Positions 39,523-44,397 of a stretch of 64,000 bases of DNA are shown piece after piece. Positions within the stretch are counted from its first letter, which is position 1. Each line of letters begins with the position of its first letter. The notes beneath the pieces are model-generated. The model was not told where the DNA came from, ran no database searches, and saw nothing but the letters and a program-made list of their open reading frames with translations. The stretch spans positions 90,697 through 154,696 of the forward strand of contig CAZPYM010000002.1 of the NCBI GenBank assembly GCA_964590105.1, read 5' to 3'. Origin of the DNA: an uncultured Gammaproteobacteria bacterium (GTDB lineage Bacteria; Patescibacteriota; Patescibacteriia; UBA11705; JABHMO01). The position numbers were made by a program, and so were the translations under genes.

Positions 39523-39714
39523 AATATTATTGATAATTGATAAGATTAGTTAATGATAACATGCTTTTTTGGGTAAATCAAGAAGAAATTGTTTTTATTT
39601 TATCAAATCTGAGAGGTCGTTAATGGTGCTTGACAGATTGTTTTCATTATTATAATATAATCGGTAAAGTGAATTGCTGGGACATTGACAATTATAGGGC
39701 AAAAGGAGGCAATA

Positions 39715-40719
39715 ATGAACCGAAAATCATTCAAGCCTGGCTATACGCTGGAGAGATTGCAAGAGCTTGAAGTGGCAGTCAGGGCGTGGTACGTCGGACT
39801 TCCAAAGCCGAAAATTCCCAATGCTGTGAGAATTACCGGCATGAGTTCCCGGACTGTTTTTTTGTATTTCCGGGCGGCGGAAAGGGGCAGTGGTCCCCAG
39901 CCATTGGTAATGGAGAGGCTGTTTGAAGCGACCGGAAATCCGGTTTTTCTTTTGAATGAACACGAAAAAGAGGCTTTCCGCGAACGCGGATTTGCCATGC
40001 CGGATGAGGTATTGCTTGGACAGAATGATTTTGCAGAGCCTCCGGCTGTCAAGACCAAAGGTAGGCGGCAAATTTCCATGCCTTTTGCAGAAGACAGGGG
40101 CGCGGCGATGGTCAGAGTGATTGCCGAGTGGTTTGACAGTCTGCCGTCGCCGAAAAGAGACCACGCGCAGAATCTCCTCGGAGTTGACGTCGCCACGGTT
40201 TACCGTTGGATCAAGGGGAAGACATTTCCCAATCTTGATTCTGTGTGCTCTTTGTGGAATACACTAGGAAATCCAGTTTTCCTTTTGCGTGAAAATGAGT
40301 TAAGTATTGCAAAAGCGCTTGGTTATGTGCCGGCGGAGGATTACCCGACACTGGAATCTTTCAGCGGGAAGTCTGTCTCTGACCAGCCGGCGTCCGCGTC
40401 GCTGAAAATTGCTGTCAGGACTGAAGCAGACTCGGTCAACGTGGAAGTAGCTTTTGGCAAAAAGGCGAGCAAGCTCCTGGTTGGCGTGCTGACCAGCGTG
40501 AGCGTGATCAGCGATTTGCTGCAAGAATCTGGTCTTTCCGGCGCGCCGGAGTCGATCAGATACAAGGCGGCAGAAGCAGTGATTAAAATAGTTACAGCTT
40601 TCAATTTGAAAACAGATGATTTTAGAAAAAGAACGCCCGAGGGGGGGGATGATGCGGAAACTCGCAAAAGGATGGAAATTGTTTATGGATTATTTCGACA
40701 ACCAGGAAAGGAGGAATGA
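39715..40719 (+). CDS. Tandem helix-turn-helix repeat protein (two about 90-aa modules each ending in (A/T)(T/L)GNPVFLL), hypothetical
   Basis: RBS aaaggagg precedes ATG 39715. Internal repeat ITGMSSRTVFLYF...LFEATGNPVFLLNEHEKEAFRERGF versus LLGVDVATVYRWIKGKTFP...LWNTLGNPVFLLRENELSIAKALGY. The second HTH is XRE/MerR-like. Stop abuts the ATG of the next gene. G+C-elevated. Confidence 0.5.
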   Translation: MNRKSFKPGYTLERLQELEVAVRAWYVGLPKPKIPNAVRITGMSSRTVFLYFRAAERGSGPQPLVMERLFEATGNPVFLLNEHEKEAFRERGFAMPDEVLLGQNDFAEPPAVKTKGRRQISMPFAEDRGAAMVRVIAEWFDSLPSPKRDHAQNLLGVDVATVYRWIKGKTFPNLDSVCSLWNTLGNPVFLLRENELSIAKALGYVPAEDYPTLESFSGKSVSDQPASASLKIAVRTEADSVNVEVAFGKKASKLLVGVLTSVSVISDLLQESGLSGAPESIRYKAAEAVIKIVTAFNLKTDDFRKRTPEGGDDAETRKRMEIVYGLFRQPGKEE

Positions 40720-42364: not shown

Positions 42365-42372
42365 TGTTCTGA

Positions 42373-44397
42373 TTATTTTTGGGCGAATAATCGCCTGATT
42401 GTTTCTTGTTGTTCCGGCGTAAAAACCTGGTCAAGCCAGCTGATCTCTGCGTCGGGCGACACGCCGTATAAAACCTTGCCGCCAAGCGAGCCGCAAAAGC
42501 GCAAAAAAGTTTGGCTTTTATTGAGTTCTAGGCAGGCTTTAAAAATTTGTTTATAAGCGTTTTTATAATCAATCATTGGGTCAAAGCAATTTGCGTTTCG
42601 CATAACGCTGGCAATTTTGAAAAGTGTTCTCACCTTTCCGCCAAGGCAAAACACGGCAATGATTTGTTTTTGAAGTTGAGTTAATTCATTCGTGCGTTGG
42701 CATTCGACTTCAGTCGTTACGTCATTGCGGAGCCTTATAATCCTTGTCTTCGTGTCGTTTTTAGCCAAAACTGGCAAGGGAGCTGAATCTACCGGACTTG
42801 TTTTTGCGCTGTTTTCAGCAGGAGTTACCGCCGGTGAAACTGCCGGTGTGGGTTCTGTTTCCGGTTTTGGCGGTTTCGTTGTCGCGCAAAGAGATCTTAA
42901 CCGTTCGTGAAGTTCAGTCGGAATGATTGCTCCTGTGTCCCCGGTCGCAGCGGTACTTTGCATGTAGAGCGCATACTTTTTGCTCATGCGGCCGCAGAAA
43001 GTCAATGGCGGCTGGTCACGGCGGGAAATTTCCCTGGCCGTAGAAATGATGTTGCCGCGTCGTTTTGAATCGCTGCCAAGTAGTCCAAGTTTAAACAGTG
43101 CGTCGGCCACTTTCCAAGATGATTTTCTTGTGCCAATGATTTGATAGGCTGCAATGATCAGTGTTTCGTCTTCTAGTGAACATGGCGTGCCATCGGGAAC
43201 TTCATTTGTGTCTTCTGCGTCTTCGGGCGGAAGTATCGGAGCCTCAGAAGCTTGCCAGCTAAGAAGTTCCTCTTCGTCAAATTCAGGCGGCGCAGAAAGA
43301 ATATCTGTTCCCGCCGAAACTTCTTCAAAATGTTCAACCGGCGGGGCCATTTGACAGACCTTCAAAGCGTTTTGCAAGCGCAAAAGATCTTTGAGCTGAT
43401 CTTCAATAGGCGACCGCAACCGGAGGAGTTTCTGGATATAAGCGTCGATTTCTTCAATTTTTTCATACGCGCGTTCGATCGCGGCAGTGATTAGTTGGCA
43501 ATCTTCTTTGGAAGAAAATTCAAGGCGCGGCTTTAACTCCTGATCAATTATTTCATTTTGGATATAACTTCGATCGTCTTCCACAACGGTTTGCGCGCGG
43601 CGCAAACCGTCAAGGCGTCTTTGCAGGGGCGCGATGAACTGTTGCAAGGACTTAATCTTGATGCTGACATCGCAGCCATGTGTTCTCGTCGGTGTAGTAG
43701 AGATTTCTCCAGCCAGGGTTTCAAGCGCTTCATCCTCAATTTGACGTCTGATTTCCGACAGTAATTCGTCGAGTATCATGGCCAGAGCAAATGATGCGCT
43801 AGTAGCTTCTTTGCGGTCACCCTGGAAAGAGTGTTGTGCCAATAGTCCAAGTTCTTCAATGATTGAAGTAAGTCTTGGGTACTGATGAGATAGCCCGTTT
43901 AGGCTTTCCCGCGCTTCTTCTGAAACCATTGTTCTGATCGATTCCGGAGTCAGCGGTTCTTCTGCCGGCGAATCAACCTTTTCATCGACAGGGTCGATGG
44001 GGGGGGCAAAGTAGTCTAGTCGCTCCTGCGGATCGACGGGCATTTCAGGCACAACCCTTTTTCGGGAAGCTTCAATGATTCTTTCGAACTGTCCTTGGTC
44101 AAAGAAAAACCGGCGGTTAGTGTCATTGGTAATGATTACTCCGCCATACTGGATGAAGTAGTTTATCAGATGCCAGAGAGCTTTCCTATTGGAACAAGAA
44201 AAGCTCTGCAAGTACTTTTGAACCTTGTTCATTGGTTCCAGAATAGAATCCGGAGTTCTGGTCATCAAGCGGGTTTGCGAATCGCAGTTGTCGGCAAATC
44301 GTTTGCTGGTTTGGATCAGCAGTTCATGGTCAGGCGGACGGCGGGGATCTATATCACTCTTCCGCTTTTGCGCCTCCAGTTTTGTTATTTCTGTCAT
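42373..44397 (-). CDS. Large hypothetical protein (674 aa) with Pro/Thr-rich linker
   Basis: No catalytic motifs recognised. Acidic N-terminal half, PPKPETEPTPAVSPAVTP linker, Cys-containing C-terminal domain. G+C-elevated and convergent with the GHKL-like gene. Confidence 0.45.
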   Translation of the reverse strand: MTEITKLEAQKRKSDIDPRRPPDHELLIQTSKRFADNCDSQTRLMTRTPDSILEPMNKVQKYLQSFSCSNRKALWHLINYFIQYGGVIITNDTNRRFFFDQGQFERIIEASRKRVVPEMPVDPQERLDYFAPPIDPVDEKVDSPAEEPLTPESIRTMVSEEARESLNGLSHQYPRLTSIIEELGLLAQHSFQGDRKEATSASFALAMILDELLSEIRRQIEDEALETLAGEISTTPTRTHGCDVSIKIKSLQQFIAPLQRRLDGLRRAQTVVEDDRSYIQNEIIDQELKPRLEFSSKEDCQLITAAIERAYEKIEEIDAYIQKLLRLRSPIEDQLKDLLRLQNALKVCQMAPPVEHFEEVSAGTDILSAPPEFDEEELLSWQASEAPILPPEDAEDTNEVPDGTPCSLEDETLIIAAYQIIGTRKSSWKVADALFKLGLLGSDSKRRGNIISTAREISRRDQPPLTFCGRMSKKYALYMQSTAATGDTGAIIPTELHERLRSLCATTKPPKPETEPTPAVSPAVTPAENSAKTSPVDSAPLPVLAKNDTKTRIIRLRNDVTTEVECQRTNELTQLQKQIIAVFCLGGKVRTLFKIASVMRNANCFDPMIDYKNAYKQIFKACLELNKSQTFLRFCGSLGGKVLYGVSPDAEISWLDQVFTPEQQETIRRLFAQK

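Follow-up and report, generated by a model that had tools for sequence, protein, structure and literature searches.

A block of three genes, here called g1, g2 and g3, lies between the housekeeping genes tig and hppA in a 64,000-nucleotide stretch of contig CAZPYM010000002.1 (assembly GCA_964590105.1, Patescibacteriota), which as a whole we call the window, and it raises the question of what these genes do together and how they came to stand there. An earlier note on this DNA had described the block as a G+C-rich, horizontally acquired island. The tig-hppA setting that it gave was borne out (the open reading frames, ORFs, are as described and carry their Pfam marks on identical contigs), but a recent arrival is contradicted by the synteny of relatives and by a base-composition offset that is found family-wide and tracks the host. 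We propose a self-contained module, old and mainly vertically inherited, that was inserted into an hppA-tig pair and whose products may carry out ATP-dependent trapping, compaction or silencing of DNA; this proposal, drawn from likeness to known ATPases, is tentative, and we rate it at a little under even chances.

A predicted GHKL ATPase and its two partner proteins

The sequence of g2 does contain the Bergerat motifs given in the earlier note, and they are conserved (E37, N41, D83-N-G-E-G87); both fold matches and conserved residues support the GHKL identity of g2. In motif I (ExxxNxxD), 25 diverse members of the g2 family show no variation at E37 and N41, and ExxxN occurs in essentially all N-terminally complete g2 proteins among 160 family members. 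In motif II (DxGxG), read as D83-N-G-E-G87, conservation is complete at G87 and reaches 90% or more at D83 and G85. The lid region keeps an invariant G100 and G118 and reads K115-R-I-G-R where GxxGxG is usual, the confidence of the model being low at residues 101-116, and G179-[TS]-F181 would fit the GHKL motif IV pattern. The structure model and its fold matches give g2 a Bergerat fold. TRAP1 and Hsp90 are the co-best structural matches, including alignments of about 270 residues over the N-terminal and middle domains, and marginal structural matches were found to the middle and C-terminal domains of HtpG. A sequence-only search of g2 against PDB chains gave no significant match. Together, these results show g2 to be a predicted ATPase with intact catalytic residues and a transducer-like second domain of the Hsp90/MORC/SMCHD1 type.

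Beyond the GHKL domain, a candidate arginine stands in the motif TDRxGL of g2, which we take to recall the catalytic arginine of the Hsp90 middle domain. The last 30 residues of the disordered linker have a mean net charge of +4.6 and are positively charged in 22 of the 25 members. A zincin protease was considered for the C-terminal domain and rejected (it has no HExxH, and its polar residues differ between subgroups), and we consider this domain non-catalytic. A pair of the topoisomerase VI B and A kind, in which the partner would carry a Toprim domain and a winged helix with a catalytic Tyr, is disfavoured in that no Toprim domain was detected.

The duplicated helix-turn-helix (HTH) that had been read in g1 is supported by an internal repeat and by weak profile matches: the two halves of the protein align with each other (29% over 72 amino acids, aa; E 1e-9), and the second half matches HTH_17 (E 1e-3) and the repressor family phrog_5301 (E 1e-5). 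The repeats lie at about aa 22-93 and 136-204, followed by a C-terminal helical domain at about aa 225-334. The g1-like proteins of relatives are 210-335 aa long with one or two HTH repeats, and the C-terminal helical domain is the part kept between subgroups i and ii of the family (hhalign E 2e-5). These comparisons show g1 to be an HTH-type, predicted DNA-binding partner.

Across seven orthologues, g3 has a conserved N-terminal domain (aa 1-130) with the motif GGLIxTNDPxRxYxFD, a long helical or coiled-coil centre (about aa 170-350), an acidic LPxxPExDEExLLxW segment and a C-terminal domain of about 100 aa that occurs twice (about aa 411-510 and 565-674), both copies aligning with the single copies of relatives. 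The Pro/Thr linker that the earlier note had reported is visible in the translation at about residues 511-560, and its statement that the protein has no recognisable domains holds in that the profile matches are weak and of the coiled-coil type only. The single-sequence AlphaFold2 model is poor (mean predicted local distance difference test, pLDDT, 41.7), with long helices at residues 198-350 only. The word index described below returned g3 alone as its own homologue, and neither g3 nor its sub-domains gave a significant match in a sequence-only search against PDB chains; by profile comparison, g3 is homologous to the convergent gene of the subgroup-ii modules (hhalign E 5e-7, 244 columns). 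Judged from its sequence, g3 is coiled-coil-like.

The copy number of partner domains varies by lineage, with one or two HTH repeats in g1 and one or two C-terminal domains in g3. Both are doubled in the window and in locus L006; in L004, a single HTH repeat goes with two g3 C-terminal domains. This variation could reflect co-variation of interacting or DNA-binding units.

Extent, neighbourhood and base composition of the family

A word-indexed search of 5.8 billion proteins found seven g2 clusters at 37-54% identity, the window's own among them. All six relatives carry a g1-like gene, then g2, then a convergent g3-like gene, with the three ORFs intact in every lineage compared. The triad stands between tig and hppA in L005, L006 and L007, beside tig on the short contig L004 and beside hppA on the short contig L010; in L011, an RNA ligase gene lies upstream of the triad where the others have tig. 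Hence, a comparison of the tig-hppA interval, proposed by the earlier note as a check on horizontal acquisition, speaks against it, as the block is present in six of six relatives, five times beside tig and/or hppA, and is absent only in the outgroup Komeilibacteria.

Among these genomes, identity is 57-69% for tig and 79-87% for hppA, compared with 34-60% for g2, 22-42% for g3 and 25-41% for g1 (24-54% for the block vs 61-83% for the flanks). From the shared synteny, the divergence of tig and the lower conservation of the block, we conclude that the block is long established in this clade and diverges more quickly than the genes on either side. The pairs of closest relatives, the window with L004 and L005 with L010, come out the same for tig and hppA as for g1, g2 and g3, in keeping with vertical descent. 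By tig, the nearest GTDB species are Patescibacteria, namely Ca. Falkowbacteria (55%) and Komeilibacteria (46% and 42%). In two Komeilibacteria genomes, hppA and tig lie 6 and 19 nt apart, an empty site in the outgroup; the module therefore split an ancestrally contiguous pair.

In an exhaustive hidden Markov model (HMM) search of 1.84 billion cluster representatives, 155 matches to the g2 family were found, 137 of them below 1e-10 and nearly all about 500 aa long, showing g2 to be a discrete, undescribed family of about 155 clusters. For the locus scans, family alignments of 25 and 16 sequences were too divergent and the subgroup-ii alignment worked; a GTDB-wide scan with subgroup-i patterns gave no match. 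The recurrence of the three genes elsewhere, which the earlier note had suggested looking for, was found in every locus sampled across the family, each with a tightly coupled gene upstream of g2 and a convergent gene downstream. In P0030 ('Patescibacteria group bacterium') the triad lies between tuf and fusA; others lie near dnaJ-dnaK or between penicillin-binding-protein/Mur-ligase genes and Dus, and those of group iii among ordinary genes. The module is chromosomal. Homology between subgroups i and ii extends to both the g1 and the g3 partners.

Modules of subgroup ii have an additional gene, g4, of 480-557 aa and with no known domain. In L092 (positions 6800-14125 of JAGOQX010000006.1, GCA_018063105.1), a subgroup-ii module is accompanied by a 557-aa fourth gene and an ADP-ribosylglycohydrolase gene, and the insertion separates tuf from fusA within the str operon, which is normally contiguous. 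L100, L101 and L104 carry the fourth gene too, and Pfam gives no match for it.

An analogous gene set, inverted relative to tig, occupies the hppA-tig interval of Ca. Falkowbacteria RIFOXYC2_FULL_36_12 (L012, positions 4550-9834 of MFGJ01000001.1). It consists of a 137-aa gene (-), a 389-aa HTH-like gene (+), a 661-aa GHKL gene (+; HATPase_c_3, E 4e-11) and a convergent 549-aa coiled-coil gene (-). Its GHKL protein, alone in the set, shows a detectable relationship to the window's, a distant one to g2 (hhalign E 2e-4, 278 columns), which suggests that such triads form a wider superfamily and that the insertion site is a preferred one.

The richness in G+C (GC) that the earlier note had seen stands for the block overall (0.49 vs 0.41 in the rest of the window) and fails for g3 at gene level, where GC at third codon positions (GC3) is 0.464 compared with 0.445 for hppA. 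For g1 and g2, GC3 is 0.52 and 0.565, only 1.2 to 1.6 standard deviations above the other genes of the window (mean 0.413, standard deviation 0.092). The excess recurs at all 13 loci compared (window, L004-L007, L012, L092, L095, L097, L100, L101, L104 and L107), with module GC = 0.20 + 0.72 × flank GC (r = 0.87), and g2 has a GC3 of 0.54-0.67 in hosts where tig and hppA have 0.23-0.36. Since it recurs in every lineage and scales with host GC, the excess is not the signature of a fresh transfer and indicates long residence. It is intrinsic to the module, biased gene conversion at a recombining locus and selection on DNA composition being the candidate causes.

Layout of the block and other features of the window

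The features of the block are collected in Table 1. The ORF 39685-40719 on the plus strand that the earlier note had assigned to g1 was confirmed, but its start at 39685 was not: translation most likely begins at ATG 39715, where an AAGGAGG Shine-Dalgarno sequence lies 5 nt upstream and where gene callers on identical contigs likewise give a 334-aa product. The close coupling of g1 and g2 was as described, the TGA at 40717-40719 directly abutting the g2 ATG at 40720, and a terminator of its own could be recognised for each transcription unit (42261-42288 for g2, 42340-42365 for g3). Inside the block, no Rfam family reached threshold, with sub-threshold noise only.

Table 1 Features of the three-gene block and its boundaries (positions in the window).
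Feature	Position	Strand	Description
tig (trigger factor)	38215-39522	-	435-aa ORF; Pfam Trigger_N/FKBP_C/Trigger_C on identical contig; left boundary
Predicted g1 promoter, sigma-70-like	39630-39658	+	TTGACA-17-TAATAT; 10/12 consensus matches, from consensus scan alone
g1	ORF 39685-40719, probable start 39715 (334 aa)	+	two predicted CI/Cro-like HTH repeats and C-terminal helical domain
g2	40720-42249	+	509 aa, GHKL (Bergerat-fold) ATPase-type
g2 residues 1-205, GHKL domain	40720-41334	+	N-box E37/N41, G1 box D83-G87, flexible lid 101-116, G-T-F-T 179-182
g2 residues 206-360, second alpha/beta domain (transducer or S5-like)	41335-41799	+	invariant D259, G287, R302
g2 residues 361-412, disordered linker	41800-41955	+	acidic, then strongly basic (…GRKPHRRRKPQKKP…); pLDDT <50 at 373-410
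g2 residues 413-509, C-terminal alpha/beta domain	41956-42249	+	four strands and long helices
Putative intrinsic terminator, g1-g2 unit	42261-42288	+	11-bp stem, 8 GC pairs, then T-run TTTTTATTTAT
Putative g3 terminator	42340-42365	-	10-bp stem AAAACGCTCC…GGAGCGTTTT, A/T runs on both sides; minus-strand use read from sequence
g3	42373-44397	-	674 aa, convergent to g1-g2
Predicted g3 promoter, sigma-70-like	44473-44445	-	TTGACA-17-TAGAAT; 11/12 matches, consensus match alone
Putative hppA terminator hairpin	about 44483-44510	-	read from sequence
hppA (H+-pyrophosphatase)	44524-46545	-	Pfam H_PPase on identical contig; right boundary

Two further candidates within the block were rejected. A 432-aa ORF antisense to g2 (40765-42063, minus strand) was tried as an overlapping gene; synonymous shuffles give lengths in the same range, and its counterparts in relatives span only 140-304 codons. 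This codon-aligned antisense frame is open because TTA, CTA and TCA codons are rare in g2 (3 of 509), which makes the long ORF a by-product of the module's GC excess. The 8-mer ATTGACAA, common to the leaders of g1 and g3, was considered as an operator, but two AT-rich stretches of about 150 nt are expected to share such a word by chance, and it overlaps -35-like hexamers.

Elsewhere in the window, positions 461-2907 hold a 237-aa ORF with no Pfam match followed by a 566-aa SPFH/Band-7 flotillin-like gene (1207-2907, plus strand), just upstream of dnaA (4773-6152). With a GC of 0.627 and a GC3 of 0.81, the flotillin-like gene is by far the strongest compositional outlier of the window, and this region is a better candidate for recent horizontal acquisition than the block, in which the earlier note had seen the window's best candidate for a horizontally acquired DNA-targeting or stress-signalling module. 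A GC-rich patch (35500-36000, GC 0.516) covers a 130-aa ORF (35530-35922), and the identical contig L001 has in the same place a 121-aa gene with no Pfam match (4838-5203). No Rfam family reached threshold in this patch, where a divergent structured RNA is possible. A stand-alone response-regulator receiver gene (36764-37240; Response_reg, E 2e-17) is found two genes upstream of tig, with no kinase nearby in the window; it also neighbours tig on identical contigs.

Possible functions of the module

By analogy with known GHKL machines, the module most plausibly serves the ATP-driven clamping or silencing of DNA. g1 would bind DNA via its HTH repeats and dock g2 via its conserved C-terminal domain. 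ATP binding would dimerise the N-terminal domains of g2 into a clamp, as in MORC, Hsp90, MutL and topoisomerase II ATPases, with the basic linker contacting DNA, and the coiled-coil protein g3, whose terminal domains are possibly winged-helix-like, would bridge or multimerise these clamps. The output would be the ATP-dependent trapping, compaction or silencing of particular DNA, which may be foreign, as a nuclease-free defence, or chromosomal, as a form of nucleoid organisation.

GHKL-S5 proteins are established as acting on DNA superstructure (Iyer, Abhiman & Aravind 2008, PMC2292703). In prokaryotes, MORC and paraMORC1-5 are GHKL-S5 ATPases of restriction-modification systems with SFII helicase, nuclease or methylase partners, and MORC proteins have, after the GHKL domain, an S5-fold domain with a conserved basic finger and the signature GhXhhpXXRhl (PMC2292703). 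A regular expression for this signature matched none of the 160 g2-family members; HTH and coiled-coil proteins take the place of the helicase, nuclease or methylase partners, and the module lies instead among housekeeping genes, syntenic within the clade. Unlike in eukaryotic MORC and SMCHD1, the coiled coil and the HTH targeting are on separate polypeptides, CW, hinge and zinc-finger domains are absent, and there is no sequence relationship beyond the GHKL core (E 1.2). The module might work like a MORC/paraMORC-type ATPase but is not a member; we regard it as a GHKL-S5-type engine with a new partner set and lifestyle.

Several observations weigh against this reading. The fold matches of g2 do not separate the DNA-acting MORC/SMCHD1 from the Hsp90/TRAP1 chaperones, and the HTH matches of g1 fall short of curated cut-offs. 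Because the model of g3 failed (pLDDT 41.7), a hidden effector or enzyme in this protein is possible. The module has so far been seen in Patescibacteria-type contigs, the high-GC loci L097 and L104 lying outside that check. Moreover, the partners in the Falkowbacteria triad have no homology to g1 or g3 detectable by hhalign and the triad is inverted, which hints at an independent acquisition at the same site and at a deep inheritance that is not purely vertical.

The best-surviving alternative is a conventional anti-phage or abortive-infection system, in which g1 and g2 would sense invading DNA and g3, together with g4 in subgroup ii, would kill the cell or degrade the invader. The fast evolution of the block relative to its flanks is consistent with such a role, as are its patchy distribution (about 155 clusters, none in GTDB representatives by subgroup-i patterns), the variable accessory gene g4 and the different triad at the same site in Falkowbacteria. 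GHKL ATPases also have a place in defence, both in MORC/paraMORC linked to restriction-modification (PMC2292703) and in GHKL-Shedu (PMC12137116), where VcSduA carries a C-terminal DUF4263 PD-(D/E)xK nuclease (Adams et al. 2025, PMC12137116). Like g2, GHKL-Shedu has a GHKL ATPase with a clamp-like middle domain, there used in a conflict system, but g2 has no DUF4263 nuclease and two partner genes instead. In none of the partners was an effector domain (nuclease, TIR, HEPN, pore or other) detected, and neither the window nor about 20 related loci yielded an SFII helicase, a nuclease of the restriction-fold, HNH or TIR kind, or a DNA methylase. Against PADLOC-DB 2.0.0, g2 gave no match, g1 only mad1 (E 0.028, HTH only) and g3-type partners only weak matches to the coiled-coil arms of LmuB, JetC and MkoC. 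The earlier note's remark that no named system is recognisable is upheld, g2 qualifying neither as MORC nor as Hsp90 nor as GHKL-Shedu. The neighbours are housekeeping genes rather than defence islands, and a position that is stable across lineages whose tig is 57-69% identical is unusual for defence cargo. We regard this alternative as possible, though rather unlikely.

Less likely still is a domesticated remnant of a prophage or mobile element, for example a superinfection-exclusion cassette made of a CI-like repressor, an RIIA-like GHKL protein and a structural coiled coil, which would sit at a recombination hotspot and be exchanged via its conserved flanks. The g1 repeats do resemble phage CI-type repressors (phrog_5301, as above), the hppA-tig site does hold a different, inverted triad in Falkowbacteria, the module has predicted promoters and terminators of its own, and biased gene conversion at a recombining locus could account for its GC excess. 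Among viral structures, g2 matches proteins of the phage T4 RIIA type best (Foldseek E 1e-7 to 1e-9), with the N-terminal GHKL module in common; RIIA proteins differ in length (600-900 aa) and in their partners. A weak match links g2 to phrog_6203, a PHROG of unknown function (E 2e-3). Set against these likenesses, no relative was found in 50,697 phage genomes (by tblastn), 72,556 plasmids or the IMG/VR contigs, and a phage, plasmid or viral origin was rejected on this ground. No integrase, att-like repeat or other phage gene lies nearby, the nearest tRNA being at 47165; flanking direct or inverted repeats, tried as an integration scar, amounted to short AT-rich chance matches, none significant. 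The three ORFs are intact in every lineage, and their nearest neighbours agree with those of the host genes.

A diverged Hsp90-like protein-remodelling chaperone with two cofactors, placed by tig, dnaK/dnaJ and translation factors for a role in folding, appears improbable. The structural matches to TRAP1 and Hsp90 over the N-terminal and middle domains, the layout of these domains followed by a charged linker and a small C-terminal domain, and the presence of tig, dnaJ-dnaK and tuf-fusA among the neighbours speak for it. However, g2 has no Pfam HSP90 match, is much shorter than Hsp90, HtpG or TRAP1 and is coupled to an HTH protein, and its rapid divergence and rarity fit a core chaperone poorly. 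In small genomes of the Candidate Phyla Radiation (CPR), which are mostly housekeeping, such neighbours are expected by chance, and other loci have unrelated ones. A recently acquired G+C-rich island, as in the earlier note, is very improbable: the local GC of 0.49-0.52 (window, 0.41) and the absence from outgroups would suit it, but the block occurs in six divergent relatives, five times beside tig and/or hppA, its GC excess is shared across the family and rises with that of the host (slope 0.72, r 0.87, 13 of 13 loci), and neither mobility genes nor repeats accompany the block.

Within the favoured reading of DNA clamping or silencing, a bolder and much less probable version would make the triad a prokaryotic, nuclease-free counterpart of the MORC/SMCHD1 silencing machines, divided over three polypeptides as HTH adaptor, ATP-gated clamp and coiled-coil bridge. 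If this were true, the GC excess would be functional and might, for instance, keep the genes of the module outside the AT-rich DNA that it targets; alternatively, the excess would be the footprint of recurrent recombination at a conflict locus. The persistence of the excess and its scaling with host GC make it an evolutionary signal that can be tested with population data.

The Patescibacteria (CPR), with their tiny genomes and few cultured members, make up a large share of bacterial diversity. That the position of the triad has been kept over deep divergence in such genomes means that the module probably matters to them. To our knowledge, prokaryotic MORC-type GHKL-S5 ATPases are known almost only from restriction-modification systems with nucleases and helicases. 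An intact ATPase paired solely with a DNA-binding and a coiled-coil protein would extend the range of uses known for the GHKL-S5 engine, and the triad could serve as a simple model for the action of MORC/SMCHD1-type clamps on DNA.

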